NCBI RefSeq assembly: GCF_050920415.1
Contig: NZ_CP169309.1
Origin: Escherichia coli
Lineage (GTDB): Bacteria; Pseudomonadota; Gammaproteobacteria; Enterobacterales; Enterobacteriaceae
Length of the DNA stretch: 64,000 nucleotides
Strand: one strand, 5' to 3'
Below the pieces are notes generated by a model that did not search any database, was not told the DNA's origin, and was given only the letters and a program-made list of their open reading frames with translations. The position numbers were made by a program, and so were the translations under genes. Shown piece by piece: positions 10,023 through 29,209 of the stretch (positions are counted from its first letter, which is position 1; each line of letters opens with the position of its first letter).

Positions 10023-10298
10023 ATGTTCAGCCGTGTTTTAGCCCTTCTGGCTGTGCTTTTGCTAAGTGCAAATACATGGGCAGCCATTGAAATTAATAAC
10101 CACCAGGCCAGAAATATGGACGATGTGCAAAGCTTAGGCGTGATTTATATCAATCATAATTTCGCCACTGAAAGCGAAGCGCGTCAGGCATTAAATGAAG
10201 AGACAAATGCGCAGGGCGCAACGTACTACCACGTGATTCTGATGCGGGAACCGGGGAGTAACGGCAACATGCACGCCAGCGCGGATATTTATCGCTAG
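10023..10298 (+). CDS. yjfY: DUF1471-family small secreted protein YjfY
   Basis: 91-aa ORF with signal peptide (MFSRVLALLAVLLLSANTWA); GAGGAGG RBS; K-12 position between rpsF and ulaF. Confidence 0.9.
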   Translation: MFSRVLALLAVLLLSANTWAAIEINNHQARNMDDVQSLGVIYINHNFATESEARQALNEETNAQGATYYHVILMREPGSNGNMHASADIYR

Positions 10299-10338
10299 CA
10301 CCAGGTATAACCAACGAAACATTGCCATAGTTTGCTTT

Positions 10339-10363
10339 GCCCCCTTCTCAGGGGGCTTTTTTT
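10339..10363 (+). terminator. rho-independent terminator of yjfY
   Basis: Stem GCCCCC/GGGGGC (10339-10344 and 10351-10356) with a 6-nt loop, followed by TTTTTTT at 10357-10363. Confidence 0.8.
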
Positions 10364-10426
10364 GAAAAACGGCTGCGGACTTAGACCAGTTATCTCCCGA
10401 AGAAGGAAATTTCCGCAGCGCGTGTT

Positions 10427-11113
10427 TTACTTCTGCCCGTAATAGGCGTTAGGACCGTGCTTACGCATGAAGTGTTTATTCATGAGATAGCTGTCGATGT
10501 GATTCAGTTGTGGGTTAATGCCGCGGGCAATCCACGCCATTTTCGCCACTTCTTCCATCACCACCGCGTTATGCACCGCATCGTGAGCATCTTTCCCCCA
10601 GGCGAACGGCCCGTGCTGATACACCACAATTCCCGGCGTATGCAGCGGCTCGGCGTCACCCAGCGTTTCGATAATCACTTTGCCTGTGTTTAGCTCGTAT
10701 TCCCCCTGCACTTCTTCTTCACTTAACCCACGCGTACACGGGATATCGCCAAAGAAGTAGTCAGCATGCGTGGTGCCTAATGCCGGGATCGCCAGCCCCG
10801 CTTGCGCCCATGCGGTGGCATGCGTGGAATGGGTATGGACAATGCCGCCAAGCGACGGATAACGACGGTAGAGTTCAAGATGCGTCGCAGTGTCGGAAGA
10901 CGGACGATACTCCCCTTCCACCACCTTGCCGCTAATATCAACCACCACCATATCGTCTGCTTTCATGGTTTCGTAGGCGACACCGCTGGGCTTGATCACC
11001 ACCAGCCCGCGTTCGCGGTCAATGGCGCTGACGTTACCCCAGGTAAAGGTCACCAGCCCGTAACGCGGCAGATCCATGTTGGCTTCAAATACCTGCTGTT
11101 TCAGCTTTTGCAT
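10427..11113 (-). CDS. ulaF: L-ribulose-5-phosphate 4-epimerase UlaF
   Basis: 228-aa translation [36 protein letters not shown]...; last gene of the ulaABCDEF operon. Confidence 0.95.
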
Positions 11114-11967
11114 TATGCCGCCTCCACCATGCCTGCTTTAGCCATGCGCGCTTTCACCCAATCACGCGCTTTCGCCACTTCTGCCGCCGGGTCTTCCGCC
11201 GTTTCGCTCCACATCTCAATCAGGTACGGCCCGCAATAGCCACTCTGTTTGAGCGTTTCAAAGCAACGTTCGAAATCCACCACACCCTCGCCAAACGGCA
11301 CGTTTTTGAAGACGCCTGGTTTAGTGTCTTTCACATGCACCGCGACGATATGCCCGATTCCGGCCTGCAATTCCATCTGCACGTCGTTGTCCCACGCCGA
11401 CAAGTTGCCGATATCCGGGTAGAGCTGGAACCACGGGTTGTTAAGATAGTGCGCGTAACCCAGCGCCTTGCTGATGGAGTTCATCAACGGGTAATCCATG
11501 ATCTCCATTGCCAGCGTCACCTGCGCGCGGCTCGCCATCTCAACGCTCTCTTTCAGGCCGTCACGGAAACGACGACGCGTTTCGTTATTGGCTTCCTGAT
11601 AGTAAACGTCGTAGCCCGCCAGTTGGATCACGCGAATACCGACATCCTGGGCGAACTGGATAGCTTTTCGCATAATCTCAAGCCCCTGCGCCCGCACTGC
11701 GTCATCTTCGCTGCCCAGCGGGAAACGACGATGAGCAGAAAGGCACATGGATGGTACGCGCACGCCGGTTTCAACAATCGCGTTCACCAGCGCCAGACGC
11801 TGCTCGCGGCTCCAGTCAAGGCGCGAGAGGCGATCGTCCGTTTCATCTACCGACATCTCGACAAAATCGAAGCCTAACGTTTTTGCCAGTTGCAGCCGTT
11901 CCAGCCAGCACTCCCCGGCGGGGAGCGCTTTTTCGTAGATGCCAAGCGGGATTTGTTTGGACAACAT
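11113..11967 (-). CDS. ulaE: L-ribulose-5-phosphate 3-epimerase UlaE
   Basis: 284-aa translation [44 protein letters not shown]...; stop shares one nucleotide with the ulaF start. Confidence 0.95.
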
Positions 11968-11976
11968 ATCCGCTCC

Positions 11977-12627
11977 TTAGCCCCACAGTTCGGCGATGGA
12001 ACGTTTGAACTGACGCGCGGCTTCAACCGGAGAGGCGGCATCACGGATACTACGCCCAGCGATAAACACATGAATCGGAATGCCTTTGAACAGCGGCAGG
12101 TCTTCCAGCGCCAGGCCACCGGTGACGGTGACTTTGAAGCCCATATCGGAAAGACGTTTGATCGCGGTGATATCCGCTTCGCCCCACGCCACGCCTGCGG
12201 CCTGCGCGTCACGGCTGCGGTGATAAACCACCTGCTGGATACCTGCGTCGCGCCACTGCTGCGCCTGTTCCCAGGTCCAGTAACCGGTCAGTTCGATCTG
12301 CACGTCGCCATTAAACTCTTTTGCCACGTCCAGCGCGCCTTTGGCGGTGTTGATATCTGCACAGCAAATTACGGTCACCCAGTCAGCGTTGGCTTCAAAG
12401 CACATACGAGAAAGGATTTTTCCGGCATCGGCGATTTTGGCGTCTGCCAGCACGATTTTGTGCGGATAAAGCGCTTTCAGATCGCGAACCGCACGCACAC
12501 CTTCGCCCACGCACAGAATGGTGCCCACTTCGATAATGTCGACTTCTTCGGCAATCAGGCGAGTAGTTTCGTAGGCGCTAGCCATAGTCTGGTTGTCCAG
12601 CGCGACTTGCAACATCGGTAATGACAT
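11977..12627 (-). CDS. ulaD: 3-keto-L-gulonate-6-phosphate decarboxylase UlaD
   Basis: 216-aa product starting [13 protein letters not shown]... at the ATG at 12627 (AAGGAA RBS); the longer ORF-track start at 12780 has no RBS support. Confidence 0.93.
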
Positions 12628-12640
12628 TTTCAATTCCTTC

Positions 12641-13105
12641 TTAAGCAGCCGCGTTGGTGCGGTCAATGAGATCCAGGATTTCCTGCTCGGTACGGCAGGC
12701 GCGTAAACGGTCGAAATTCTCTTCATCTTCAAACAGGTTGACGATCTGCATGATGCCCACTTCCTGATGCGTGTTGGCATCGACCGCCGCCATCGTGATG
12801 AGGATATCCACCGGGTCGTTATCTTCGTGGTTGAACTCCAGCGGCTTTTTCAGCGTCACCAGCGCAAAACCGGTTTTCTTAACGCCCTCTTCCGGGCGAC
12901 CATGCGGCATTGCCAGGCCCGGTGCGAGCACAAAGTACGGACCGTGCTGTTCAACCGCATCCAGAATCGCCTGGTAGTAACGCGGCTCTACCACATCTGC
13001 CGCCACCAGCAGGTCAACGCCGATTTTCACTGCGTCCTGCCATGTCTCAGCTTCAGCCTGCAGACGGATAGATTTATTCTCCGCCAGCGAATCACGTAAT
13101 TTCAT
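12641..13105 (-). CDS. ulaC: ascorbate-specific PTS EIIA component UlaC
   Basis: 154-aa translation [29 protein letters not shown]... Confidence 0.94.
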
Positions 13106-13114
13106 AGGGCGCCC

Positions 13115-13420
13115 TTACTTCACGTCCTGCGGGAAATGTTCTTTGATCACTTCCAGCAGTTTCGGGCCAAAGTCAGCAGGAGAGAGCATGTTGCGCACGC
13201 CAACGACATATTTGTTGCCGGTCACGGTGATCTCGCCCGCGATGTGCGTAGAAGCGATGATGATATCCGCGCCGCTCAACTCGCTTTTGTATTCACCAAC
13301 CGCGCAGCTGTTTACCGTATGGTCGATGTTCGACTGGGTTAAAAACTGGTCCACTTTCATTTTCATGATCATGGAACTGCCTTGTCCGTTACCACACACA
13401 GCCAGAATACGTACGGTCAT
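13115..13420 (-). CDS. ulaB: ascorbate-specific PTS EIIB component UlaB
   Basis: 101-aa product starting [16 protein letters not shown]... at the ATG at 13420 with AAGGAG RBS. Confidence 0.93.
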
Positions 13421-13435
13421 AATCAAAACTCCTTA

Positions 13436-15187
<1,752 letters not shown>

Positions 15188-16252
15188 ATGAGTAAAGTGA
15201 AAAGTATCACCCGTGAATCCTGGATCCTGAGCACTTTCCCGGAGTGGGGTAGCTGGCTGAATGAAGAAATTGAACAAGAACAGGTAGCTCCTGGCACATT
15301 CGCGATGTGGTGGCTAGGCTGTACCGGGATCTGGCTGAAATCTGAAGGTGGCACCAACGTTTGCGTCGATTTCTGGTGTGGTACTGGCAAACAAAGTCAC
15401 GGTAACCCACTAATGAAACAGGGTCACCAGATGCAGCGCATGGCTGGCGTGAAAAAACTGCAACCGAACCTGCGTACCACCCCATTTGTTCTTGATCCGT
15501 TTGCGATTCGCCAGATCGACGCGGTACTGGCAACTCACGATCACAACGATCATATCGACGTCAACGTCGCTGCTGCCGTGATGCAGAACTGCGCTGATGA
15601 CGTGCCATTTATCGGGCCGAAAACCTGCGTGGATTTGTGGATTGGCTGGGGTGTGCCGAAAGAACGTTGCATCGTGGTCAAACCGGGCGATGTCGTTAAA
15701 GTGAAAGACATTGAAATTCATGCCCTTGACGCGTTTGACCGTACTGCACTGATCACTTTGCCTGCCGATCAAAAAGCGGCTGGCGTACTGCCAGACGGCA
15801 TGGACGATCGCGCGGTAAACTACCTGTTCAAAACGCCGGGCGGTACCCTGTATCACAGTGGCGATTCCCACTACTCTAACTACTATGCGAAGCACGGTAA
15901 CGAGCATCAGATCGACGTGGCATTAGGTTCATACGGTGAAAACCCACGTGGTATCACCGACAAAATGACCAGTGCTGATATCCTGCGTATGGCAGAAGCG
16001 CTGAATACAAAAGTGGTTATCCCGTTCCACCATGATATCTGGTCAAACTTCCAGGCCGATCCGCAAGAGATCCGCGTACTGTGGGAGATGAAAAAAGATC
16101 GCCTGAAGTATGGCTTCAAGCCGTTTATCTGGCAGGTCGGTGGCAAATTTACCTGGCCGCTGGATAAAGACAACTTCGAGTACCACTATCCACGCGGTTT
16201 TGACGATTGCTTCACCATTGAACCGGATCTGCCGTTCAAGTCGTTCCTGTAA
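15188..16252 (+). CDS. ulaG: L-ascorbate-6-phosphate lactonase UlaG (metallo-beta-lactamase fold)
   Basis: 354-aa product [23 protein letters not shown]... with HDHNDH metal-binding motif; start taken at the ATG at 15188 (AAGG 9 nt upstream) rather than 15182. Confidence 0.94.
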
Positions 16253-16265
16253 TCTGTCGTTTATA

Positions 16266-16297
16266 CCGGATGGCGTGGAGAAGTTCGCGCTATCCGG
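16266..16297. repeat. REP-like hairpin between ulaG and ulaR
   Basis: Imperfect inverted repeat CCGGATGGCG ... CGCTATCCGG resembling a REP palindromic unit. Confidence 0.35.
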
Positions 16298-16359
16298 CGT
16301 AGTATTTCCTGGCTATTTCAAATATCATCTAAAAAAATCAAATTTTATCGGAATAGCTC

Positions 16360-17115
16360 ATGACTGAAGCACAAAGACATCAAATTCTCCTGGAAATGCT
16401 CGCACAATTGGGCTTTGTGACCGTTGAGAAAGTCGTTGAGCGTCTGGGAATTTCGCCTGCTACCGCTCGACGCGATATCAATAAACTTGACGAAAGCGGC
16501 AAACTGAAAAAAGTGCGCAATGGCGCAGAAGCCATTACCCAGCAGCGCCCACGCTGGACGCCGATGAATCTGCATCAGGCGCAGAACCATGATGAAAAAG
16601 TACGTATCGCTAAAGCAGCCTCGCAGCTGGTTAATCCGGGCGAAAGCGTCGTCATCAACTGCGGTTCCACCGCGTTTCTGCTTGGGCGGGAAATGTGTGG
16701 CAAGCCAGTGCAAATCATTACTAATTATCTACCGCTGGCGAATTACCTGATCGATCAGGAGCATGACAGCGTGATTATCATGGGCGGCCAATACAACAAA
16801 AGCCAGTCCATCACCTTAAGTCCACAGGGCAGCGAAAACAGTCTCTATGCCGGGCACTGGATGTTTACCAGCGGCAAAGGACTGACCGCAGAAGGGTTGT
16901 ATAAAACCGATATGCTGACGGCAATGGCAGAGCAGAAGATGTTGAGCGTGGTAGGGAAACTGGTGGTACTGGTTGATAGCAGTAAGATCGGCGAACGTGC
17001 GGGGATGCTCTTTAGTCGTTCAGATCAAATCGATATGCTGATCACCGGCAAAAATGCTAACCCGGAAATCCTGCAACAACTGGAAGCGCAAGGGGTCAGC
17101 ATTCTGCGTGTTTAA
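16360..17115 (+). CDS. ulaR: DeoR-family transcriptional repressor UlaR
   Basis: 251-aa translation [49 protein letters not shown]... with an N-terminal HTH. Confidence 0.95.
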
Positions 17116-17861
17116 AGATGCTGGCGGAAAAATGTCACGGCGGTCTCTAACGCCTCGGGCGTAATGCGGTGACGCACGCCTGGCTGCCATGAACAGGTTA
17201 GCTGTTTATCCCGTCCCACCTCGCTTAAGGCCTGCTGCAAACGTAGTGATTCGTCGGCGGGGACGACATCATCGTCAAGGCCATGCCATAAGAGCAGAGG
17301 TCTGTTTCCCAACTCTTCCAGGTGGTTTGTCGCTTCCCACTCTGCCAGTGGCGCGATAATGTTATTAAATTCGTTCTGCTGTCCTGTCGTTTCAGATATC
17401 AGCGGTGGAAACAGTGAACGGGCGAGTGATGTAAAATAGCCCGATCCCATCATGCTGGCGGTACATTTCACCGTGGGGTAGCGAGCGGTAATTCCCAGAG
17501 CCGTCATCGCGCCCATCGATGCACCACCGATTGCCAGACGGTCATCAAGCAGCCAGTTTTCTTCAGCTACTGCCGCACGTAAAGTAATGAATTCCTGCAT
17601 ACTTTGTAGCAAGATTTGCCAAAATTGATTTAACCGCCGCGCTGCGTCGCCCCTAAAACGGCTACCGTGATCGGGCGCATCCGGCATGATCACCCGCAAA
17701 CCAGCCTGCGCCAGCGCAACGGCAAAATAGCTATACACCAGACTGGACGAAGTAAAGCCGTGATAAAAAATCACGCACGGTAACGGGGTATCTTTTTGCC
17801 CGACAGGATAAGCATGAAGAACGGGAATATCTGCCAGCACGCGCGAGTCTATTTCAATCAT
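17112..17861 (-). CDS. yjfP: alpha/beta-hydrolase esterase YjfP
   Basis: 249-aa translation [39 protein letters not shown]...; 3' end overlaps ulaR by 4 nt, convergent. Confidence 0.92.
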
Positions 17862-18042
17862 CTGTCTCTCCTTTTTGTCTGGTATGACATGAAGAAATCC
17901 TTAGCACAAGTTTCTGCTGGCGGTATTAGTTCATAATGTTGAGATGTGGGTTACGCTTTCATCACGTTTTCATTCGAAAATCGCGTACCAGGTAACAATT
18001 CGGGAACATTCCCCCAAAGTTAAATTAATAAGGCACTACACT

Positions 18043-18372
18043 ATGGTTAGCAGGAAACGTAATAGCGTTATTTACCGGTTTGCCAGTTTATTATTGGTGT
18101 TGATGTTAAGTGCCTGTAGCGCACTGCAAGGTACGCCACAGCCAGCACCGCCAGTAACGGACCATCCGCAAGAGATTCGCCGCGACCAGACGCAAGGGTT
18201 ACAGCGAATAGGTAGCGTAAGCACGATGGTTCGGGGTTCTCCGGATGACGCATTAGCAGAAATCAGAGCGAAAGCTGTCGCTGCAAAAGCTGATTATTAC
18301 GTTGTCGTCATGGTGGACGAAACCATCGTGACAGGACAGTGGTATTCACAAGCCATTTTGTACCGTAAATAA
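18043..18372 (+). CDS. bsmA: biofilm stress and motility lipoprotein BsmA (YjfO), DUF1471 family
   Basis: 109-aa product MVSRKRNSVIYRFASLLLVLMLSACSALQG... with a lipobox (LSAC); start at the ATG at 18043 rather than the ORF-track 17944. Confidence 0.9.
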   Translation: MVSRKRNSVIYRFASLLLVLMLSACSALQGTPQPAPPVTDHPQEIRRDQTQGLQRIGSVSTMVRGSPDDALAEIRAKAVAAKADYYVVVMVDETIVTGQWYSQAILYRK

Positions 18373-18520
18373 ATCAGACAACTTACATAGTCAGCTTTAC
18401 ATTGCTTTGCGTCCCTATGCGTTTACCTGTGCACAATAAATTACCAGCTGGAAGCTCGGGCGTTTATTACCGCGATGGAATGCCCTGCAACATGTGGGGA
18501 AACGAAAAATGGAGCTGACG

Positions 18521-18796
18521 ATGAAACAATTACTTGCCTCACCCTCGCTGCAATTAGTGACTTATCCTGCGAGCACCACGGCACAGTCTGCAGAATTCGC
18601 CAGTGCTGACTGCGTAACGGGCCTGAATGAAATAGGTCAGATCTCGGTTAGCAATATTTCAGGGGATCCGCAGGACGTGGAACGTATCGTGGCGTTAAAG
18701 GCCGATGAACAAGGTGCATCATGGTACCGCATTATTACCATGTACGAAGACCAGCAGCCTGATAACTGGCGCGTACAGGCGATCCTGTATGCGTGA
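18521..18796 (+). CDS. yjfN: DUF1471-family protein YjfN
   Basis: 91-aa product MKQLLASPSLQLVTYPASTTAQSAEFASADCVTG... with GGAG 6 nt upstream of the ATG at 18521. Confidence 0.9.
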   Translation: MKQLLASPSLQLVTYPASTTAQSAEFASADCVTGLNEIGQISVSNISGDPQDVERIVALKADEQGASWYRIITMYEDQQPDNWRVQAILYA

Positions 18797-18821
18797 GTGT
18801 CATCTACAGCAAATGAACAAT

Positions 18822-18852
18822 GCCGGATGCGGCACCTGTGCCTTATCCGGCC
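18822..18852. repeat. REP element
   Basis: GCCGGATGCGGCACCTGTGCCTTATCCGGCC matches the canonical E. coli REP palindromic unit; lies between yjfN and aidB. Confidence 0.75.
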
Positions 18853-18945
18853 AACAGTTCCTGAAATTTCATTGTGTTAGTTGATAACACGTAATGCTGC
18901 TGTTGCCATTATAAGACGCGCTAGCATCACATCTGGCTGACTCGT

Positions 18946-20571
18946 TTATAAACATACTCCCCCCGTCGCCCGCAGCAATAAATCATTCTGGATCTGCTCT
19001 GACAACCGCACGCCGCCGCGCGTATCAAACATCATCTGACACCACGCCTGCGCCATTGGCGGAGAGGCATATTTCAACATTTGCGCGCCGCAACCCAGCA
19101 GGAATAGCTGACGAGTAATCTCTCGCCCCATTTCTTCAGCTGGCTTACGCAGTTGCTGCTGCAAACGACGAACCGCGCGATCAAAATAGCGATCCTGTCC
19201 TTTCACTTCCACAAATGCTTCTGTCAGCAAATCGTATACCCCAGCCTGCTTATTGAGAACGCGCAGCACATCGAGGCACATAATATTGCCAGAACCTTCC
19301 CAGATGCTGTTCACTGGCATTTCCCGATAAAGTCGCGGTAGTTCGCTCTCTTCGCAATAGCCAATACCGCCCAGCACCTCCATCGCTTCAGCCACAAACG
19401 GAATGCCACGTTTGCAGATAACAAATTTCGCCGCAGGCGTAAATAAGCGCGCCCACAGGGCTTCTTTGGCATCGGCACGCCGATCCCACGCTCGCGCAAG
19501 ACGAAACAGCAACGCTGTTTGCCCTTCAAGTTGGAGCGCCATGCGGCTTAAGACATGACGCATCAAAGGCTGTTGGATCAATGGATTACCAAAAACATGG
19601 CGTTGATGGGCATGATAAATCGCCAGCGAAAATGCACGGCGCATCATGGCATGGCTACCCAGGGCGCAATCAAAACGCGTCATCCCACCCATTTTCAGGA
19701 TCAGACGAACTCCTTCCCCTTCCTGCCCCAACAACCAGCCAATGGCATCCTGAAACTCCACTTCGCAGCTGGCGTTAGAGCGATTACCCAGCTTATCTTT
19801 CAGCCGCTCGAGGCGAATCGCGTTGCGTTGCCCGTCAGGCAAAAAGCGCGGCACAAAAAAGCAGGACAAACCGCCCGTAGTCTGCGCCAGCACCAGATGC
19901 GCATCGCTTTGCGGCACCGAGAAAAACCATTTATGCCCCACCAGCCGATAAGAGCCATCGTCCAGACGCTCTGCGCGGGTAGTGTTGCTCATCACATCGG
20001 AACCGCCCTGCTTTTCCGTCATGCCCATGCCAATCAACAAACCGCGTTTTTGCCCACCTGGCAATAAGTGGGAATCGTAGCGATCGCTCAACAGCGGCGT
20101 GGTCCAGTCCTGAAACGGCGCGGGTAACATCTGTAACAGCAATGGCGTGGCGGCAAAGGTCATGGTTATCGGACATAACGACCCTGCCTCAACCTGTGCG
20201 TGCAACATAAAACGCGCCGCGCGCGCCACAAATGCGCCGGAGCGAGCGTCTTCTTCCCAGGCAAGATTGTGCACCCGATTGGTACATAGCGCCTGCATCA
20301 GCAAGTGCCAGGCGGGGTGAAAACGCACATCGTCCAGACGGCGTCCTTGCGCATCGTAGCGCAATAATTCAGGCGGATTCACATTCGCCAGCCGCCCCAG
20401 TTCAAGAGATTCAGCCGTTCCTAACTGCTGACCAATACTGGCGAGAAAATCGCTATCCCAGCCAGCACCTTCACGCGTTACCGCTTCGCAGAGCGCGCCA
20501 TCAGACAGGTATAAGTTGCTGTTATTTAATGGTATAGGTTGATTAAAAACGGTGTGAGTTTGCCAGTGCAC
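18946..20571 (-). CDS. aidB: adaptive-response protein AidB (acyl-CoA dehydrogenase family)
   Basis: 541-aa product starting (GTG) MHWQTHTVFNQPIPLNNSNLYLSDGAL...; GTG at 20571 with GGAGGGAG RBS 7 nt upstream; the ORF-track TTG/ATG extension is rejected. Confidence 0.93.
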   Translation of the reverse strand: MHWQTHTVFNQPIPLNNSNLYLSDGALCEAVTREGAGWDSDFLASIGQQLGTAESLELGRLANVNPPELLRYDAQGRRLDDVRFHPAWHLLMQALCTNRVHNLAWEEDARSGAFVARAARFMLHAQVEAGSLCPITMTFAATPLLLQMLPAPFQDWTTPLLSDRYDSHLLPGGQKRGLLIGMGMTEKQGGSDVMSNTTRAERLDDGSYRLVGHKWFFSVPQSDAHLVLAQTTGGLSCFFVPRFLPDGQRNAIRLERLKDKLGNRSNASCEVEFQDAIGWLLGQEGEGVRLILKMGGMTRFDCALGSHAMMRRAFSLAIYHAHQRHVFGNPLIQQPLMRHVLSRMALQLEGQTALLFRLARAWDRRADAKEALWARLFTPAAKFVICKRGIPFVAEAMEVLGGIGYCEESELPRLYREMPVNSIWEGSGNIMCLDVLRVLNKQAGVYDLLTEAFVEVKGQDRYFDRAVRRLQQQLRKPAEEMGREITRQLFLLGCGAQMLKYASPPMAQAWCQMMFDTRGGVRLSEQIQNDLLLRATGGVCL

Positions 20572-20588
20572 TGTGTCTCCCTCCATCA

Positions 20589-20620
20589 ATGGCAGTCACC
20601 CTTAGTATGGTCACTGCCAT
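20589..20620 (-). promoter_or_regulatory. 12-bp near-perfect inverted repeat in the aidB upstream region
   Basis: ATGGCAGTCACC (20589-20600) and GGTCACTGCCAT (20609-20620) form an 11/12 inverted repeat with an 8-bp spacer, about 20-50 nt upstream of the aidB start. Candidate operator or 5'-UTR hairpin. Confidence 0.4.
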
Positions 20621-20654
20621 GGATTCCTGACAGAAAGAGATTGCTAAAACATTC

Positions 20655-21818
20655 TTACCCAGCAATGTAATGCGGAACGAAACGTGAGGTGTCTTTGGTG
20701 ATCAGCGTGTTATCTTCACGGATTCCCATTCCGCACGCTTCATCATCGACAATCCAGCTACCGATGAGTGTGTAGCTATCGCCAAATCGCGGCAGAGGTT
20801 GAAACGCCTGATAGATCATCGGTTCATCGGCGTAATCACCCTCAGCGTGGTCAACGACGTTATTCTGACCGTCGAAAATGGTGACGTTTCCGCCTTCGCG
20901 TGAGTAGATCGGTTTACGCACATAGCTTTCGCCAGCGGCAATCTGCGGTTTTTCGCCATCAAACCAGGATGCAAGTAGGTTAGGATGACCAGGAAAGAAG
21001 CGCCAAAGCAGCGGCATTAACCCTTTGTTGCTCAAGATACTTTTCCATAACGGCTCCACCCATTGCTCGCGGCGCTTGCGCAGCAGAGGACCGTTATCGT
21101 CACGCATCATCCATTCCAGCGGATACAGCTTAAATGCACGCTGGATGACATTATCATCAAGATCGGTCAGTACACCGCCGACGCCCAAACCGAGATCTTC
21201 AATGTAGATAAACCGTGACTCCTGCCCAGCCTGCTGAGCGCAGTCCTGCAAGTACAGCACAGTACTCCTGTCTTCGTCGGTATCCTGACAACAGCAGAAA
21301 TAAAACGGTTCCCGACTGTAAAGCTCGCTAAAACGCGAAATCAGGCGTTCCTGAATGGCATTGTACTGATCGGCATCACGCGGAATAATGCCGCTACGCC
21401 GCGCATCTTCCAGCCACAGCCACTGGAAATAAGCCGATTCATACAACGAGGTTGGCGTATCGGCGTTGTACTCCAGCAGCTTCACCGGCGCATTGCCACA
21501 CCAGGCAAAATCCATCCGACCATACAGCGAAGGATCGCGTGCGCGCCAGCTTTCAGCGATCACATCCCAGTACAGCGGGGGGATCGCCAGTTGCGTCAGG
21601 ATTTCTTCGTCTTGAACCGCACGATCCACCACCTCAAGGCACATCTGATGCAGTTCCGCAGTTGGTTTTTCGATCTGCTCTTCTATCTGACGCAGAGTAA
21701 AGCGGTAAGCCCGACTCTCATCCCAATAGATTTCATTGTCGATGATATGAAAGTCGAAACCGTTGTCGGCGGCGATCTGGTCCAGATCCCGTCGTACAGG
21801 AACGTTGTGTCTCAGCAT
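20655..21818 (-). CDS. yjfC: glutathionylspermidine-synthase-like ATP-grasp protein YjfC
   Basis: 387-aa translation MLRHNVPVRRDLDQIAADNGFDFHIIDNEIYWDESRAYRF...; last gene of the yjfI-yjfC operon. Confidence 0.92.
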   Translation of the reverse strand: MLRHNVPVRRDLDQIAADNGFDFHIIDNEIYWDESRAYRFTLRQIEEQIEKPTAELHQMCLEVVDRAVQDEEILTQLAIPPLYWDVIAESWRARDPSLYGRMDFAWCGNAPVKLLEYNADTPTSLYESAYFQWLWLEDARRSGIIPRDADQYNAIQERLISRFSELYSREPFYFCCCQDTDEDRSTVLYLQDCAQQAGQESRFIYIEDLGLGVGGVLTDLDDNVIQRAFKLYPLEWMMRDDNGPLLRKRREQWVEPLWKSILSNKGLMPLLWRFFPGHPNLLASWFDGEKPQIAAGESYVRKPIYSREGGNVTIFDGQNNVVDHAEGDYADEPMIYQAFQPLPRFGDSYTLIGSWIVDDEACGMGIREDNTLITKDTSRFVPHYIAG

Positions 21819-21820
21819 GA

Positions 21821-22459
21821 TTAGCCTCCCCAGTGCCCACGGGCGCTGGAAGAACGACCATAGCCGCCGCGAGAAACAGTTGACGCTTTTCTGGTGGTAA
21901 AGCCGCCCGAGGAGTAAGACTCTTTTTTGCCAGAACCGGAGCGCCAGGAGTAATCACCGGAAGTATTGCGCCAGACGGGGCGGGAAGCAAATGAGGATCC
22001 ACCGCTGTTATAAACGAACGGCTCATCGCGATCTTTACGAATAACCCGGCTTAATAAAAATCCAGAAATGACCGGGATCCAACTCTGTTCAACATTGTCG
22101 TAGTAGCAATTTTCGTACTTAGACTGACAATTCTGCTGAGTCATATTCTTCGGAACATCGGCATAAAATGCCGCTTTGGCATTGTTCCAGCCATGAGCAC
22201 AGATATCTGAATTATTACCGTCATCAATACAATCCTGCACTGTCGAGTAAAACGTTCCGTCACCGTCGTTATCGACATCACCACTATCGCCACAACCTTT
22301 CAATACAAAAAAAGCTGCACCGCCCATTAGCGCCAACGTTAAGTATTTTTGTGCGTAGCGATTGCGTCGCGGCTCAAAAGGATTATTAGGTCTTCCAATG
22401 CGACTGATCGCTCCGTGACCAATTTTACTGTTATTTCTTGATTTGCGTTTTCTGGCCAT
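21821..22459 (-). CDS. yjfM: DUF1190-family protein YjfM
   Basis: 212-aa ORF, Gly/Ser-rich C-terminal half; 2-nt gap to yjfC. Confidence 0.9.
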   Translation of the reverse strand: MARKRKSRNNSKIGHGAISRIGRPNNPFEPRRNRYAQKYLTLALMGGAAFFVLKGCGDSGDVDNDGDGTFYSTVQDCIDDGNNSDICAHGWNNAKAAFYADVPKNMTQQNCQSKYENCYYDNVEQSWIPVISGFLLSRVIRKDRDEPFVYNSGGSSFASRPVWRNTSGDYSWRSGSGKKESYSSGGFTTRKASTVSRGGYGRSSSARGHWGG

Positions 22460-22468
22460 GATCGTCCA

Positions 22469-22867
22469 TTACCATGTCATACAAGCTGCGTTAAAAATAC
22501 CGCCAGCCAGCGCGGCGGTTCCCATAAACATTCCTGCTGCGGTATTGTGATTAATAATTTTTTCGCTTAATGCTGGCATATAAAGTCTGACGCCAGCAAA
22601 AACGAGTAACTGAATCACCAGTGCGATCCCGCCCCAGGCAAAATAATCCGGAATACTCACCGCATTGATTGCCGCACTAGATAATGGGATCACGTAACCC
22701 AACAATGTACCACTGAACGCCAGTGCCGCCGCGGTATTATTGTTTTTAATTAACTGCCATTCGTTGTGCGGTGTAATTTTGGAGTAGATAAACAGAAAAA
22801 TAATCACCATAGCCACGCCAATAAAAAAATAGGCGCTAAAGGCAAGAAGTGAATCCAGTATATGCAT
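22469..22867 (-). CDS. yjfL: DUF350-family inner-membrane protein YjfL
   Basis: 132-aa hydrophobic ORF MHILDSLLAFSAYFFIGVAMVIIFLFIYSKITPHNEW... Confidence 0.9.
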   Translation of the reverse strand: MHILDSLLAFSAYFFIGVAMVIIFLFIYSKITPHNEWQLIKNNNTAAALAFSGTLLGYVIPLSSAAINAVSIPDYFAWGGIALVIQLLVFAGVRLYMPALSEKIINHNTAAGMFMGTAALAGGIFNAACMTW

Positions 22868-22884
22868 CGTAAACGTCCTTGTAA

Positions 22885-23544
22885 TTAACCAATAATATGA
22901 AGTGATGTCAGTGGGATATCAACACCCAGTGCGCGCGAAAATAACCACTCCGGCTCGCCGAGATCGTTAAAAGATTCCTCACCATTTAACAGCAAATATT
23001 CACAGGTATCTTCGGTCACCTGCCGTTCATAGCCCATGGTAAAATTATGCACTTCCCATTTGGCGTGGTTTTGATTTTCAACTTTTTCCAGCATATAGAC
23101 GGGTTCGATATTCCCCGGTTCTTCGCTGTTAAAAAATCGCTGCCAGCGTTTTTCCTGCCAGTTTAATGTCATTGCCCCCATCGCTTTGGCGTTGATCGCT
23201 TCGCGCCAGTGGCTCTCTTTGCTGATACCGTAGCTCTCTTCATAGACAAAGAGCTTTATATCATCAATGTCATCAATATCTTCGCCGCCGGTGGTATTGA
23301 TTTGCAGAAATTCATCGCCCGAAGTGTAGTAGCGGAAAATCTGACTACCGCCGCCCAGATCGATGTGGCTGACAGCGGCTACCGTAAATTCTTCACCCGG
23401 CAGCGCAATCAGCAATTCATCTTCCAGCAAACGAAACGCTAACGTGTCGAGCGTAAAGCCGCTATTGAGATGAAGTCCCAGCGGGCCACGTGCGGTTACA
23501 GGTTTATCATCCTTACCAAACAGACGCTTGAAAAAACTTGTCAT
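22885..23544 (-). CDS. yjfK: DUF2491-family protein YjfK
   Basis: 219-aa translation MTSFFKRLFGKDDKPVTARGPLGLHLNSGF...; start ATG overlaps the stop of the upstream channel-like gene (ATGA) with GAGGGAAG RBS. Confidence 0.9.
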   Translation of the reverse strand: MTSFFKRLFGKDDKPVTARGPLGLHLNSGFTLDTLAFRLLEDELLIALPGEEFTVAAVSHIDLGGGSQIFRYYTSGDEFLQINTTGGEDIDDIDDIKLFVYEESYGISKESHWREAINAKAMGAMTLNWQEKRWQRFFNSEEPGNIEPVYMLEKVENQNHAKWEVHNFTMGYERQVTEDTCEYLLLNGEESFNDLGEPEWLFSRALGVDIPLTSLHIIG

Positions 23545-24611
23545 ATGCTTCCCTCAATGTCCTGCCATACCACTTCTTCAGCCAAAATACGGTTATTGCC
23601 AATAAGATGCAGCCACATACCGCCTTTAACTTCCGTTGCAATGACTGGATTCAGTTCCATTCCCCTACCATTTTTACAACTGCTTATTCCCAGGACGGTG
23701 GCATCATGATGAAGTTTCATATAATGCATCAATGCGCCATAACGCATCGAGGTAACCCGTTCAGGAATCGGTAAAACAAACCCCGTATCCCCCAGCATTG
23801 GATTCATAATCGATGCCACTGATTGAGATGAACCGGGATCTTGTATTGAACGGGAAAGTTGTTCTGCTGAAATATTTCGCACTATTTCAATACGTTGACA
23901 ATGAACCTCTAATAAACGAGCGTAGCGTTCATCTTCCAGATAAGCGACGATATGGCATCTTTCAGGAATAAAATCCGCCAGGGATAGTGCGGTCGTGAAC
24001 GTCTGCTCATCTGTTTGCGAAAAGATGATGACACTTTGGCAATTTGCCAGTCCCATGCGGGTATGTTCATGCGGATCATTAAAATTACTAATACGAATGA
24101 AATCGACCCAATTATTTCCAGGCATCGGATGTTGAATATCATCCCGCTCACACAAAAGTACCCGGCCAAATGCTCTTCGGGAATCAAACAACAATAATGA
24201 AATCATCTTTTCAGTCTGATGCCCGCGCCATCCAATGACCAGCATATGGTTGCGCAAATTGCTGTAGTCGCCCATTCCCGTCATTCCTTTCGCCAATATG
24301 TCTTGCACTAATGCAATGACTTTTCCCATTAAAGCGCCAAATAAACCAACACTCACAGGAATCTGCCAGAGCGCTGTGAACAGACGTCCCCCAACCGTTT
24401 GGGGTGTGATATCACCAAACCCCAGCGTTGATCCCACAACCGAGCAGTAATAAATAAAATTACTCAGTTGACCTACCAACGCCTCTTCATGCAACGCAGT
24501 TAACACCAGATAACAAAACAGATACTGTCCTGTAAATAATCCAGTCAATGCCGGCCAGGTAAGCCTGGAAAGGTGACGTCGGCAGGTTTTAATGATCCAG
24601 GAGAAGAACAT
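23541..24611 (-). CDS. putative 2-TM potassium-channel-like protein with a C-terminal RCK/TrkA-N-like domain, 356 aa; not in the K-12 gene order as I recall it
   Basis: Uninterrupted 1071-nt ORF between yjfJ and yjfK. Contains TM1 (residues ~21-45), a pore helix and K+-selectivity-filter-like TLGFGD (residues 62-67, nt 24411-24428), TM2 (~74-100), then a Rossmann-like HMLVIGWRGHQ... segment. Start overlaps the yjfJ stop (TAATG) and stop overlaps the yjfK start (ATGA). Appears AT-richer than its neighbours. Confidence 0.75.
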   Translation of the reverse strand: MFFSWIIKTCRRHLSRLTWPALTGLFTGQYLFCYLVLTALHEEALVGQLSNFIYYCSVVGSTLGFGDITPQTVGGRLFTALWQIPVSVGLFGALMGKVIALVQDILAKGMTGMGDYSNLRNHMLVIGWRGHQTEKMISLLLFDSRRAFGRVLLCERDDIQHPMPGNNWVDFIRISNFNDPHEHTRMGLANCQSVIIFSQTDEQTFTTALSLADFIPERCHIVAYLEDERYARLLEVHCQRIEIVRNISAEQLSRSIQDPGSSQSVASIMNPMLGDTGFVLPIPERVTSMRYGALMHYMKLHHDATVLGISSCKNGRGMELNPVIATEVKGGMWLHLIGNNRILAEEVVWQDIEGSI

Positions 24612-25309
24612 TACTCGCCCTGTTGGCGTTGCAGTCTTGCTAATACATCCTGGGCGCTACTTTTGTTGCTACCGCCAATTCCGGCTTCCGCCAGTTTTTC
24701 ATCAAGATCGCGACCATCTGCCACTTTTTCCAGCTGTGCGGCAGCATCCAGGCGAGCTTGACGTTCGGCCTGACGCGTTTGCAGACGCTTTAAGGATTCT
24801 GCCGCTGTCGAAACGCTGGAAGATGCGCCAACAGTAGAGGTCGTTACGGCCTGTTGTGCACGCTGCATGGCTTCAGTAGCTTTAACGACTTCCATTTGTT
24901 GCTCAAATTGAGCGATACGCTGTGCTGTCGCTGTAACCGCTTTTTCCACACCATCGCGAGAGACCTCCAGATTCGACAACACTTGCTCTTCAGCGGTAAT
25001 GAGATTCTCAAGACGGGCGATTTCTTCAGCAACTTCGTTAATCAACGACGGATTAACATTCTTGCTTAACGCTTCCAGCGCGCGAGCTTCCAGACTGGCT
25101 TTACGCTCACGTAAATCTTTCAGTTTATCGTTGCTCAATTTCACTCTTGCCAGTAGATCGACACGTGATTTACCGGCCTTATCCAGTTCTGCTTTGGCAT
25201 CGCGTATATGCTGTTCAAGCATTCTAACGCCCTGTGCTTCTTCAATGGATTCTTCCGCTTGCGAGATCACCGATTTACCCAGCGTAAATAAAGTTTTTAA
25301 AATTCCCAT
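24611..25309 (-). CDS. yjfJ: PspA/IM30-family protein YjfJ
   Basis: 232-aa coiled-coil-rich translation MGILKTLFTLGKSVISQAEESIEEAQGVRMLEQHIRDAKAELD... characteristic of the PspA/Vipp1 family. Confidence 0.93.
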   Translation of the reverse strand: MGILKTLFTLGKSVISQAEESIEEAQGVRMLEQHIRDAKAELDKAGKSRVDLLARVKLSNDKLKDLRERKASLEARALEALSKNVNPSLINEVAEEIARLENLITAEEQVLSNLEVSRDGVEKAVTATAQRIAQFEQQMEVVKATEAMQRAQQAVTTSTVGASSSVSTAAESLKRLQTRQAERQARLDAAAQLEKVADGRDLDEKLAEAGIGGSNKSSAQDVLARLQRQQGE

Positions 25310-25327
25310 AAATACCTGTCCTTGTAA

Positions 25328-25729
25328 TTAGTGTGAATATTCTTCTGTAATTTCAGCAAGATCCAAAGCGTTATCTACCAGCGTGGTTATTTCCAGCAGG
25401 ATATCTTCAAGAGAAGATTTAAGCGATAACGCCCCGAAAACAATGTAATACTCTTCCTCTTGCACGCTGGAGATCCCTACCGATGACAACGGCATCATCT
25501 TCTGATTTCTTAATAAGAAGGTATTAAATTCATCTGGATTGCTGATACTACTTACCGGACAAATAAAGGTTTCGATAATCATTTGGCGGGAAGTAAAAAG
25601 AATATTGATTTGCAAATCGCCATAATCATTCATTTTAATAATTAATGCGTTTTCATTATTTGTTATATCAATATTTTGTTCAGGTACAGTTTGCAGCGCC
25701 GTCGCCAGCGCCAACGGATTCCATGTCAT
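25328..25729 (-). CDS. yjfI: DUF2170-family protein YjfI
   Basis: 133-aa ORF MTWNPLALATALQTVPEQNIDITNNENALIIK...; first gene of the yjfI-yjfC operon, with an AT-rich promoter region upstream (25730-25808). Confidence 0.9.
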   Translation of the reverse strand: MTWNPLALATALQTVPEQNIDITNNENALIIKMNDYGDLQINILFTSRQMIIETFICPVSSISNPDEFNTFLLRNQKMMPLSSVGISSVQEEEYYIVFGALSLKSSLEDILLEITTLVDNALDLAEITEEYSH

Positions 25730-25808
25730 ATATTATTCCATATAAATTAAGTTTAAATATTAATAAAATGAATATTTGTAGTACGTAATTATCTTACCAG
25801 CTATAGAC

Positions 25809-25840
25809 AAAAAAAAACCATCCAAATATGGATGGTTTTT
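25809..25840 (-). terminator. rho-independent terminator downstream of rlmB (bidirectional form)
   Basis: Stem CCATCCA/TGGATGG (25818-25824 and 25829-25835), with a 9-nt A-run on one side (25809-25817) and TTTTT on the other (25836-25840). Confidence 0.8.
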
Positions 25841-25855
25841 CATAATTCAGAGAAA

Positions 25856-26587
25856 TTAGCTACGCTGGCGTACCGCTTCAAATAAGCAAATGCCTGTCGC
25901 CACAGAAACGTTCAGCGAAGAAACACTTCCTGCCATTGGGATGCTGATCAACTCATCGCAATGTTCACGGGTCAGGCGACGCATGCCTTCACCTTCTGCG
26001 CCCATCACCAGTGCCAGCCGTCCGGTCATTTTGCTCTGATAGAGCGTATGATCCGCCTCTCCTGCCGTACCGACGATCCAAATATTCTCTTCCTGCAACA
26101 TACGCATGGTGCGCGCCAGGTTAGTCACCCGAATCAGCGGAACGCTTTCTGCCGCGCCGCAGGCCACTTTTTTCGCCGTGGCGTTGAGCTGTGCGGAGCG
26201 ATCTTTCGGCACAATCACCGCATGAACGCCAGCGGCGTCCGCGCTGCGCAGGCACGCGCCGAGGTTGTGCGGATCGGTCACACCGTCGAGGATCAGCAGG
26301 AACGGTTGATCGAGCGAAGCGATCAGATCCGGCAGATCGTTTTCCTGATACTGACGTCCTGGCTTCACACGGGCGATAATGCCCTGATGCACGGCACCGT
26401 CGCTTTTCTCGTCGAGATATTGGCGGTTTGCCAGCTGGATAACCACGCCCTGGGACTCAAGGGCGTGAATCAGCGGCAACAGACGTTTATCTTCACGGCC
26501 TTTTAAAATAAAGACTTCCTGAAAACGTTCAGGGGCGCGCTCCAGCAGGGCCTGCACTGCGTGGATGCCGTAAATCATTTCACTCAT
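25856..26587 (-). CDS. rlmB: 23S rRNA (guanosine2251-2'-O)-methyltransferase RlmB
   Basis: 243-aa SpoU/TrmH-family translation [44 protein letters not shown]... Confidence 0.95.
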
Positions 26588-26611
26588 TAATGTACTCGTT
26601 GTTTACGTTTT

Positions 26612-26640
26612 GCCTGATGCGCTACGCTTATCAGGCCTAC
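26612..26640. repeat. REP element (first copy of a BIME-like pair)
   Basis: GCCTGATGCGCTACGCTTATCAGGCCTAC, in the rnr-rlmB intergenic region. Confidence 0.7.
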
Positions 26641-26675
26641 ATGATCCCTGCAATGTATTGAATTTGCGTGATTAT

Positions 26676-26710
26676 GTAGGCCGGATAAGGCGTTCACGCC
26701 GCATCCGGCA
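26676..26710. repeat. REP element (second, inverted copy)
   Basis: GTAGGCCGGATAAGGCGTTCACGCCGCATCCGGCA, inverted relative to the first copy. Confidence 0.7.
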
Positions 26711-26767
26711 TGAACAAAGCGCATTTTGTCAGCAATCTGACCCTCTTCTGTTTGAAGGGGGTAATGA

Positions 26768-29209
26768 TCACTCTGCCACTTTTTTCTTCGCCGCACGCTT
26801 CGCTTTAGTTGCAGCGGCTATTTTCTGCGTTTTCGCCGATGGCTTTTTCGCTTTTCTCGCGTCTTTCTTCGCCGCTTTCGGCTTCGGTTTTTTCTCGCCA
26901 CGGAAGGCGCTGTCTGGCTCAAAGTTTACCTTTTTACCGACCTGGCGACGCTTGCCACCTTTTTTACCTGCATCGCCTTTTTTCGCTTTCTCGCGCGCGG
27001 TTTTACCGACGTTGCGCGGTGCGCGTTCGCTGGAGATCAGGCTAAAGTCGATTTTGCGCTCGTCCATATTAACCGCTTCGACGCGCACTTCCACGCGATC
27101 GCCCAGGCGATAAGTCTGGCCGCTGGATTCACCCATCAGGCGTTGTCCTACCTGGTCAAAGCGATAGTAGTCATTGTCCAGAGAAGAGACATGGACCAGA
27201 CCATCGATGAACAAGTCATCCAGGCGAACAAAGAAGCCAAAACCAGTGACGCTGGAAATCACGCCTTTAAAGACGTTACCTACCTGGTCGAGCATGAAGT
27301 CACACTTCAGCCAGTCAGCCACATCGCGCGTTGCTTCGTCGGCACGACGTTCCGCCATCGAACAGTGCTGACCCAGTTGCAGCATTTCTTCCATCGAATA
27401 ATGGTAGCCGCCGGTTTCAGTGGTGTTGCCCTGATGCCCCTGCTCTTTCGCCAGCAGATACTTAATGGCGCGGTGTAGCGTCAGATCAGGATAACGACGA
27501 ATCGGCGAAGTAAAGTGCGCATAGGACTGCAATGCCAGACCGAAGTGACCGCGGTTTTCCGGATCGTAAATCGCTTGTTTCATCGAGCGCAACAGCATGG
27601 TTTGCAGCATTTCTGCGTCAGGACGGTCAGCAACCGATTCCAGCAGTTCCGCGTAGTCACGCGGTTCCGGCTTGTTACCGCCAGGCAATTCCAGCCCCAG
27701 TTCCGCCAGCACTGAACGGAAAGAGGTTATCGCTTCAGTGCTCGGCTTGTCGTGAATACGGAACAGTGCCGGTTCTTTGGCCTTCTCAACGAAACGCGCC
27801 GCCGAGATATTCGCCAGAATCATGCACTCTTCAATTAACTTGTGTGCGTCGTTACGCTGGGTCTGTTCGATACGCTCAATACGGCGTTCAGCGTTGAAAA
27901 TGAACTTCGCTTCTTCGCTCTCAAACGAGATCCCGCCGCGTTCTTCACGGGCTTTATCCAGCACTTTATAGAGGTTATGCAGCTCTTCGAGGTGCTTAAC
28001 CAGCGGGGAGTACTGCTCGCGCAGATCCTGATCGCCCTGCAGAATATGCCAGACTTTGGTGTAGGTCAGACGCGCGTGAGAGCTCATCACCGCTTCATAG
28101 AATTTGTAGCCCGTCAGGCGACCTTTCGACGAAATGGTCATCTCACACACCATACACAGGCGGTCTACCTGCGGGTTGAGCGAGCACAGGCCGTTAGAGA
28201 GCACTTCCGGCAGCATCGGGATAACCTGCGAAGGGAAGTACACCGACGTGCCACGGTTACGCGCTTCCCTGTCCAGCGGCGTTGGCGGACGCACATAGTA
28301 GCTGACGTCGGCAATCGCGACCCATAAACGCCAGCCGCCGCCGCGTTTTTTCTCGCAGTAAACTGCATCGTCAAAGTCACGGGCGTCTTCGCCATCAATG
28401 GTGACCAGCGGTAAATCGCGCAGATCGACACGGCCAGCTTTCGCCTCTTCCGGCACTTCTTCTTTCAGCCCGGCAACCTGTTGCTCAACAGCCTGCGGCC
28501 AGATGTACGGAATTTCATGGGTACGCAGGGCGATATCAACCGCCATGCCGGTGCCCATATTATCGCCCAGCACTTCGACGATTTTACCCACTGCTTTGGT
28601 ACGGCGAGTCGGGCGTTGGGTCAGTTCAACCACCACCACAAAGCCCATCCGCGCGCCCATGATCTGATCGGGCGGGATTAAGATATCGAAGCTCAAACGA
28701 CTGTCGTCAGGAACCACAAAGCCGACACCCGCTTCGGTAAAGTAGCGACCAACAATCTGGCTGGTTTTTGGCACCAGTACGCGGACAATACGCGCTTCAC
28801 GGCGGCCTTTACGGTCAGCGCCCAGCGGCTGCGCCAGCACCTGATCGCCATGAATGCATGTTTTCATCTGCTCGCTGGAGAGATACAAATCATCTTTACG
28901 TCCTTCAACCCGCAGAAAGCCGTAGCCATCACGGTGGCCAATAACGGTACCTTTCACCAGGTCGAGGCGTTCCGGCAGCGCATAGCACTGACGGCGAGTA
29001 AAGACCAGTTGACCATCGCGCTCCATCGCGCGCAGGCGGCGACGCAGGCCTTCAAGCTGCTCTTCGCCTTCAATGTGCAGTTCTACCGCCAGCTCATCAC
29101 GGCTGGCCGGTTTTTCACGTTTGGTTAAATGTTCGAGGATAAATTCCCGACTAGGGATGGGATTCGCGTATTTTTCAGCTTCGCGTTCCTGGAAAGGATC
29201 TTGTGACAT
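26768..29209 (-). CDS. rnr: ribonuclease R
   Basis: 813-aa product starting [23 protein letters not shown]... at the ATG at 29209 (GGAGG RBS), with a Lys-rich basic C-terminal tail. The ORF-track start at 29251 would overlap nsrR and is rejected. Confidence 0.95.

Follow-up and report, generated by a model that had tools for sequence, protein, structure and literature searches.

In a 64,000-nucleotide stretch of Escherichia coli contig NZ_CP169309.1, hereafter the window, the yjf operon (positions 20655-25729, minus strand) comprises seven genes in the order yjfI-yjfJ-channel-yjfK-yjfL-yjfM-yjfC, that is, the six genes known from E. coli K-12 and, between yjfJ and yjfK, an additional one for a K+ channel. 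This channel is very probably an old, vertically inherited, ancestral member of the operon, since it occupies the same position across genera, has diverged in step with its neighbours and retains the same gene order even among homologues that are 30-34% identical; we hold the identity and ancestry of the parts with high confidence. The direction of evolution has to be corrected in this sense, with K-12 representing the reduced form. An earlier note on this DNA had regarded the ion channel as added to the module, an idea that did not survive the comparison given the orthologous position of the gene in many genera, its correlated divergence (Spearman's rho of 0.91-0.98) and the derived nature of the channel-less junction.

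Distribution and ancestry of the channel gene

We collected yjf loci with a one-genome-per-species scan anchored on YjfK and not on the channel, followed by tblastn searches with all seven proteins. The scan, based on narrow peptide patterns, yielded 27 loci, and its presences and absences across genera represent a sample rather than a census. The channel gene was found between yjfJ and yjfK in three species of Citrobacter, two of Buttiauxella and two of Atlantibacter, as well as in Enterobacter sp. ENT03, Serratia microhaemolytica and a divergent Escherichia representative (L004), with rlmB and aidB as flanking genes in most of the channel-bearing loci. Salmonella enterica has an identical arrangement (nsrR-rnr-rlmB, the seven genes, aidB) and its channel proteins form a cluster of 1,960 sequences. 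The Salmonella and Citrobacter operons, with the same seven-gene order between rlmB and aidB and channels of 78-87% protein identity, differ from the one in the window only by species-level divergence, the channel being the norm in them and a rare allele in E. coli. Across nine loci, the identity of the channel closely follows that of its neighbours (Spearman's rho of 0.98 for YjfK, 0.95 for YjfJ, 0.94 for YjfL, and 0.91 for YjfC). At much larger distances, a library-wide search with the channel recovered 108 clusters (E <=1e-30), and three channels of 30-34% identity (P0156, P0160, and P0190), encoded on metagenomic contigs or contigs of metagenome-assembled genomes, lie within the same DUF2170-PspA-channel-DUF2491-DUF350-DUF1190-GSP_synth order. 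In the distant contigs L031, L032, and L035, the channel gene runs 4-11 nt into the DUF2491 gene at its 3' end. The tightly packed module described in the earlier note, and the co-occurrence of its seven genes across genomes on which that description depended, are thus borne out from the Enterobacteriaceae, E. coli included, to contigs with homologues of only ~30% identity. A de novo addition of the channel to the yjf operon was also considered as a candidate explanation and is refuted by the orthologous position, the co-divergence and the distant synteny.

More remote channel homologues (~26% identity, one of 36%) are found in unrelated contexts, so that the wider family of channels with two transmembrane segments and an RCK domain (2TM-RCK) is not always linked to this operon. 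One of them, with 26% identity, lies directly 5' of a DUF1190 gene on contig L036 (47-1861), where the other genes of the operon are absent; this pairing hints at a specific link between channel and DUF1190 protein.

The slot between yjfJ and yjfK is not filled by a channel everywhere. Kosakonia and Phytobacter lack it, and their junctions, which are very short and differ from the spacer found in Escherichia (see below), indicate that these losses were probably independent. In the loci from Endozoicomonas and Salinisphaera (L021-L029), the slot contains, instead of the K+ channel gene, a gene on the opposite strand for a protein of 209 aa with several transmembrane segments (e.g., L029, 3487-4116) that, by eye, has the look of a LysE/RhtB-type exporter; in L025 an extra ORF (open reading frame) of 347 aa is also present. 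The whole operon can decay as well: Salmonella diarizonae CCUG 30040T (L020, 6399-7538) has only gene fragments between yjfI and aidB, and the operon of Enterobacter sp. EA-1 (L019) looks degraded. At the other end of the operon, the distant contigs L032 (4443-4715) and L035 (4437-4739) carry a small divergent DUF6471 gene just 5' of the DUF2170 gene. In the E. coli window and in Salmonella (L041) the gene upstream of yjfI is rlmB, and no gene of this type occurs there; in the contigs that have it, it may encode a dedicated regulator.

Organization of the operon in the window

The seven genes follow one another on the minus strand with spacings of 18, -1, -4, 17, 9, and 2 nt (ORF list of positions 18500-28000). 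The first, yjfI (25328-25729), encodes a DUF2170 protein of 133 aa (Pfam, 4e-45) with a CesT/Tir-like chaperone fold, the partner of the PspA-like protein YjfJ (24611-25309; 232 aa), a coiled-coil protein of the ESCRT-III superfamily that matches Pfam PspA_IM30 over its full length (4e-56). The channel gene (23541-24611; 356 aa; Pfam Ion_trans_2, 1.7e-10, and a weak TrkA_N match) overlaps both of its neighbours, its start being fused with the yjfJ stop in the sequence TAATG and its stop with the yjfK start in the 4-nt overlap ATGA; the same two overlaps are found in L004. Apparently translationally coupled to the channel gene, yjfK (22885-23544; 219 aa) encodes a soluble beta-rich protein with the domain DUF2491 (PF10679), which all YjfK homologues checked carry. 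The remaining genes encode YjfL (22469-22867; 132 aa; Pfam DUF350, 5e-34), a small inner-membrane protein with four transmembrane segments; YjfM (21821-22459; 212 aa; Pfam DUF1190, 2e-17), a Cys-rich paralogue of YgiB with a putative lipoprotein-like signal (…FFVLKGC, lipobox identified by eye); and YjfC (20655-21818; 387 aa), an ATP-grasp enzyme homologous to the synthetase domain of the glutathionylspermidine enzyme GspS and matching Pfam GSP_synth over its full length (5e-149). The ORF list, the Pfam matches and the comparison with K-12 all agree with the earlier note on the seven co-oriented genes, their coordinates and gaps, and the absence of the channel from K-12. In NCBIfam, none of the seven proteins reached the threshold of a model, and the matches below it (BacA for YjfI, Kch, PRK11653, and GspS) serve as family pointers and not as names; a scan of positions 18500-27000 found no Rfam RNA family. 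E. coli MFDS1022581 (NZ_CP169399.1) matches the window with 100% identity, and its RefSeq annotation contains the same seven coding sequences, with the extra one named 'potassium channel family protein'.

The ratios of non-synonymous to synonymous substitution rates (dN/dS), calculated against the divergent Escherichia lineage L004, are 0.02-0.08 across the seven genes (0.083 for the channel) and point to seven real genes, all of them under purifying selection. A decaying or non-functional remnant, as the rarity of the channel in E. coli and the decay of the operon in S. diarizonae and Enterobacter sp. EA-1 might suggest, is therefore a scarcely credible description of the channel ORF in these strains, which is full-length, can be aligned with its orthologues throughout, retains intact filter and signature residues, has a dN/dS similar to that of its neighbours, and exists in 18 copies that are at least 99.3% identical. 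The pseudogene that, according to the earlier note, would have undermined its proposal was thus not encountered.

The channel protein

A profile constructed from 54 homologues of the channel matched, among the structures in the PDB, the full length of MthK, the Ca2+-gated K+ channel of the archaeon Methanothermobacter (E 2e-31; profile positions 2-335 corresponding to MthK residues 2-321), with weaker matches to the pore and RCK1 domain of BK/Slo channels. The AlphaFold2 model of the protein (mean pLDDT, the predicted local distance difference test score, of 92.6) led to the same family in Foldseek, where MthK and Slo1 were the top matches and MthK structures the best ones in the PDB (TM-scores of at most 0.67 normalized on the query and 0.74 on the target), with a sequence identity to MthK of ~17-18% in the structural alignments. 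In this model, a first transmembrane helix (~19-39), a pore helix (49-61), and a second transmembrane helix continued by a linker helix (73-111) precede an alpha/beta domain that corresponds to the RCK domain of MthK (120-350). The protein thus has the 2TM pore, the T-x-G-[YF]-G-D filter and the single subsequent RCK domain of MthK, together with a full-length alignment and a fold match. Its selectivity filter reads T62-L-G-F-G-D67, with G64, G66, and D67 invariant in the 54 homologues and T62 present in at least 90% of them. On this comparative and modelling evidence, the extra gene encodes an intact MthK-type 2TM-RCK K+ channel.

The channel also differs from MthK in several respects. The Ca2+ triad of MthK (D184/E210/E212) is not kept, the corresponding residues being F197/Y224/E226 in a profile alignment, which is not a structure superposition. 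Within the family, position 197 is Asp in 14 of the 54 homologues and position 226 is Glu in 23, and at position 224 Glu is absent from the six commonest residues, which cover 53 of the 54. The family has, on the other hand, a near-invariant signature of its own (Q-D-P-G-S-S, residues 257-262), and its gene sits in a PspA/polyamine operon.

A further point of comparison concerns the internal start of MthK at M107, near whose linker position the channel family is enriched in Met: 43 of the 54 homologues have one at positions 107-114 against ~20% expected, a figure confounded by amino-acid conservation. In the window, the stretch covering codons 108-113 (24273-24290) has the motif AAAGGA 9 nt 5' of the Met113 codon. 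The form AAAGGN recurs at this distance from codon 113 in each of 10 Enterobacteriaceae sequences (the window and nine orthologues), again with amino-acid conservation as a confounder, and the codon itself is ATG in eight and TTG in two of them. Codon 113 may thus be a candidate internal start giving rise to a soluble RCK domain, as M107 does in MthK.

Channel-bearing and channel-less alleles in Escherichia

The channel gene is present in just 18 of 5,426 complete E. coli genomes, in all of them at this site and with the annotation 'potassium channel family protein'. At the same locus, K-12 has the same six genes (yjfI-yjfC, b4181-b4186) with ~94-95% nucleotide identity and differs in that a 50-nt spacer replaces the 1,071-bp channel gene, so that the overlaps joining yjfJ, channel and yjfK are missing. 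The channel appears to mark a distinct E. coli haplotype because the identity of the yjfK-yjfC region to the window separates the 18 channel-bearing genomes (98.6-100%) from the channel-less ones (96.0% for the best). Sliding identity to K-12 delimits a haplotype segment of ~19 kb (~9800-29100, boundaries approximate, without strand) that is ~5% diverged, against ~99% identity outside, and that contains the ula operon, yjfP, bsmA, yjfN, aidB, the yjf operon, rlmB, and rnr. A second, short patch diverged from K-12 lies at ~36900-37500.

K-12, E. whittamii (L005), and Escherichia sp. MOD1-EC7003 (L003) have one common channel-less junction with a spacer of ~50 nt. In K-12 (L001, 14891-14940) this spacer comprises a 10-bp hairpin (GCCAGCCT-n7-AGGCTGGC) with a T-rich stretch behind it, and it supplies yjfK with a new Shine-Dalgarno sequence; the spacers of E. 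whittamii and MOD1-EC7003 differ by single substitutions affecting one and the same stem pair. Searching the window for the K-12 spacer with as many as 3 mismatches allowed gave no match, and the spacer is hence not a recognizable remnant of the channel gene. The hairpin could act as an attenuator that splits yjfIJ from yjfKLMC. Because the three lineages have the same junction and spacer, the channel-less state appears to be derived and to have arisen once, being now present in several Escherichia lineages.

The channel-bearing allele itself has a composite history. Compared with L004, synonymous divergence (dS) is 0.146 in the channel gene and 0.30-1.64 in the flanking genes (1.64 for yjfI and 0.52 for yjfJ), and in 150-nt windows the nearest relative alternates between K-12-like and L004-like sequences; for example, the 5' part of yjfJ (25286-25137) is 4% diverged from L004 and 17% from K-12. 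yjfI and the 5' part of yjfJ are hypervariable, with up to ~25% nucleotide divergence between lineages. These patterns identify the yjf locus as a probable recombination mosaic between Escherichia lineages. They also bear on the view that the channel was inserted into a six-gene yjf operon in one lineage or, in a softer version, that E. coli regained it from other Escherichia by recombination. The small number of channel-bearing E. coli and the location of the gene on a diverged segment with almost identical flanks would accord with both versions, and its low dS within patchwork tracts with the second, as it fits the movement of tracts between Escherichia lineages. An insertion is nonetheless very unlikely considering the orthologous position in Salmonella, Citrobacter, Buttiauxella, Atlantibacter, and Enterobacter, the co-divergence with the neighbours and the order retained at 30-34% identity, the clean TAATG and ATGA overlaps, with no mobile-element features seen at the junctions, and the novel spacer common to three Escherichia lineages, which makes the channel-less state the derived one. 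For an ancestral channel gene, presence in these E. coli would reflect either re-import via homologous recombination or a long-maintained polymorphism, and under either origin both allelic states appear to cross Escherichia species boundaries.

Systems with a YjfJ-type PspA are widespread, and what the window adds is a practical handle, not a new system. E. coli holds at one locus both channel-bearing (e.g., MFDS1022581 and 2013C-4282) and channel-less alleles, which, together with a published promoter-up mutation (see below), make the contribution of the channel testable in a model organism. K-12 being the reduced form, conclusions about 'yjfIJKL' based on this strain miss a component that is routine in Salmonella and Citrobacter.

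Transcription unit and expression

Upstream, the operon is bounded by the intrinsic terminator of rlmB (25812-25841, minus strand), which consists of a 13-bp stem followed by a T-run and was recognized both by a terminator scan and by reading the sequence. An AT-rich leader of ~80 nt (25730-25811, minus strand) separates it from yjfI and is a candidate promoter region. Inside the operon, promoter- and terminator-like matches were at or below the expectation from shuffled sequences, leaving the rlmB terminator as the only convincing one. Downstream, the scan detected no terminator in the gap between yjfC and aidB, and read-through into aidB is possible. The gene overlaps and the rlmB boundary are consistent with the seven genes being transcribed as one unit, in which translation would be coupled around the channel gene.

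Positions 25200-25999, corresponding to yjfI and its leader, have a GC content of 0.34-0.39 compared with ~0.5 nearby. In K-12, yjfIJKL constitute an iModulon that is on in strains evolved at 45 °C and silent in all other samples of the dataset (PMC12492005); its switch-on was traced to a 1-nt promoter deletion ~80 bp upstream (PMC12492005). The low GC content would fit this near-complete silence in K-12, for instance through silencing by nucleoid proteins.

Relation to described systems

The system type, channel included, has already been described and annotated. In a computational study, Ravi et al. (2024, mSystems, PMC11237479) reported a seven-gene operon that includes the K+ channel and proposed a link between polyamine concentration and membrane dynamics based on PspA (PMC11237479); in their account the CesT-PspA dyad also occurs on its own, and some operon variants lack it (PMC11237479). 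The window contains the E. coli instance of what they call the third group (CesT/Tir-PspA with a polyamine ATP-grasp enzyme), from which it does not differ in architecture: the DUF2170 and YjfJ-family PspA genes are adjacent (18 nt apart), a GspS-related ATP-grasp ligase (YjfC) is encoded in the same operon, the K+ channel has an intracellular ligand-sensing domain (Ion_trans_2 plus RCK), and the DUF2491, DUF350, and DUF1190 genes are all present. With the canonical Psp system (PspF-PspABCDE), the PspA/IM30 family is the sole point in common; the partner in the yjf operon is a CesT-like protein, and we found no genes for PspB, PspC, or PspF/sigma-54 activators among the ORFs or the annotated genes at and around the locus.

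Partial sets of the same components exist elsewhere. The bac cluster of Pseudomonas aeruginosa (PA3732-PA3729) contains the same dyad of a DUF2170 protein (BacA) and a PspA-like protein (BacB); according to its published account, the crystal structure of BacA, a YjfI homologue, has a CesT-like fold and bac mutants show biofilm, rhamnolipid and virulence defects (PMC10948618). In E. coli itself, tolC-ygiB-ygiC encodes paralogues of YjfM and YjfC, namely the DUF1190 protein YgiB and the peptide-spermidine ligase YgiC, as summarized in the sources cited here for these enzymes. The excerpted descriptions of the bac cluster and of ygiBC mention no channel. Peptide-spermidine ligase activity is reported for both YjfC and YgiC (Pederick 2023, cited in PMC11762307 and PMC10948618), and a 2012 study that compared GspS with YgiC and YjfC is summarized as finding YgiC devoid of glutathionylspermidine synthetase activity. 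Bifunctional GspS combines an amidase and a synthetase, whereas YjfC consists of the synthetase-type domain alone (GSP_synth, 387 aa), with no N-terminal CHAP amidase domain; the NCBIfam GspS model scored 162 bits on YjfC against a cutoff of 882, the best stretch corresponding to the C-terminal part of the profile (487-613 of 619). The statement of the earlier note that none of these genes has a settled function holds for their physiological role; it is overtaken for the activity of YjfC, the fold of BacA, the yjfIJKL iModulon and the operon of Ravi et al., all of them published.

A possible inner-membrane stress module

As an overall explanation we favour, and consider reasonably probable, that the window carries the complete ancestral seven-gene yjf operon and that this operon serves as an inner-membrane stress module. 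A role in membrane and ion-homeostasis stress can reasonably be inferred and agrees with the published proposal. How the parts might work together can be sketched, tentatively and with less than even confidence, from gene content and knowledge of the families. YjfI would act as a chaperone that holds, delivers or targets YjfJ, which would polymerize on damaged or curved inner membrane and limit ion leak like PspA and Vipp1. The channel, as a tetramer, would be opened and closed by its cytoplasmic RCK ring in response to a ligand that does not use the Ca2+ site of MthK, and would tune K+ flux and membrane potential under the same stress. YjfC would join spermidine to a carboxylate of a peptide or protein and thereby alter the local polyamine state. 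Since polyamines block the MthK pore (PMC7335011) and presumably pores of this type in general, the action of YjfC could relieve or impose such a block of the channel, or else produce the RCK ligand. YjfK (cytoplasmic), YjfL (membrane), and YjfM (periplasmic, probably a lipoprotein) would be accessory partners, and K-12-type strains would run the system without the channel.

Several observations weigh against such a module, in particular against its obligatory integration. K-12 keeps the six other genes without the channel; Kosakonia and Phytobacter do without it too; and in Endozoicomonas the opposite-strand LysE-like gene takes its place. The degraded operons of S. diarizonae and Enterobacter sp. 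EA-1 imply that the whole set is dispensable and decays repeatedly. The iModulon defined in K-12 does not include yjfMC (PMC12492005), yjfIJ is cited in part of the literature as an operon of its own, and the paralogous DUF1190/ATP-grasp pair ygiBC is described elsewhere in the genome, beside tolC. In the channel, finally, the Ca2+ triad is not conserved (F197/Y224/E226).

The main rival to a single machine is that the locus juxtaposes sub-modules whose functions are separable, possibly with separate transcripts: the YjfI-YjfJ dyad, a stand-alone K+ channel, YjfK-YjfL, and the polyamine pair YjfM-YjfC. The clean loss of the channel with persistence of the other genes would be expected in that case, as would the K-12 hairpin between yjfJ and yjfK, the citation of yjfIJ as an operon, the limits of the iModulon, and the location of ygiB-ygiC with tolC. 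The stand-alone dyad and dyad-less operon variants of Ravi et al., the Endozoicomonas cluster split by an opposite-strand gene, and the remote channel homologue beside DUF1190 alone can be read in the same way. We nevertheless regard separate sub-modules as rather unlikely, in view of the overlaps between yjfJ, channel, and yjfK (-1 and -4 in the window and in L004, 4-11 nt at the distal channel junction in L031, L032, and L035), the fact that all seven genes have stayed together, with their order unchanged, even where the homologues have only ~30% identity to those of E. coli, and the internal promoter- and terminator-like matches, which do not exceed chance.

A more elaborate version of the stress module, which we judge improbable, would combine a polyamine-tuned K+ valve with ESCRT-III-like membrane repair. 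YjfC, by consuming free spermidine or by producing a ligand of the channel, would set pore block or RCK gating while YjfJ and YjfI seal the membrane, a soluble RCK protein started near codon 113 would complete the gating ring, as in MthK, and the presence or absence of the channel would be a trans-specific, niche-dependent polymorphism.

One could also imagine an anti-phage system of the abortive-infection type, in which a PspA-like sensor and the channel would collapse the membrane potential upon infection. PspA was found as a phage-shock protein and some defence effectors depolarize the membrane, which is a loose analogy only, and the presence of the channel is polymorphic in E. coli. We find this idea highly implausible: PADLOC returned no match for six of the proteins and, for YjfJ, two coiled-coil noise matches (E ~1e-3), and the operon, instead of belonging to a defence island, occupies a place in the core genome that is conserved across genera, with rlmB and aidB as neighbours and with a divergence that follows species relationships.

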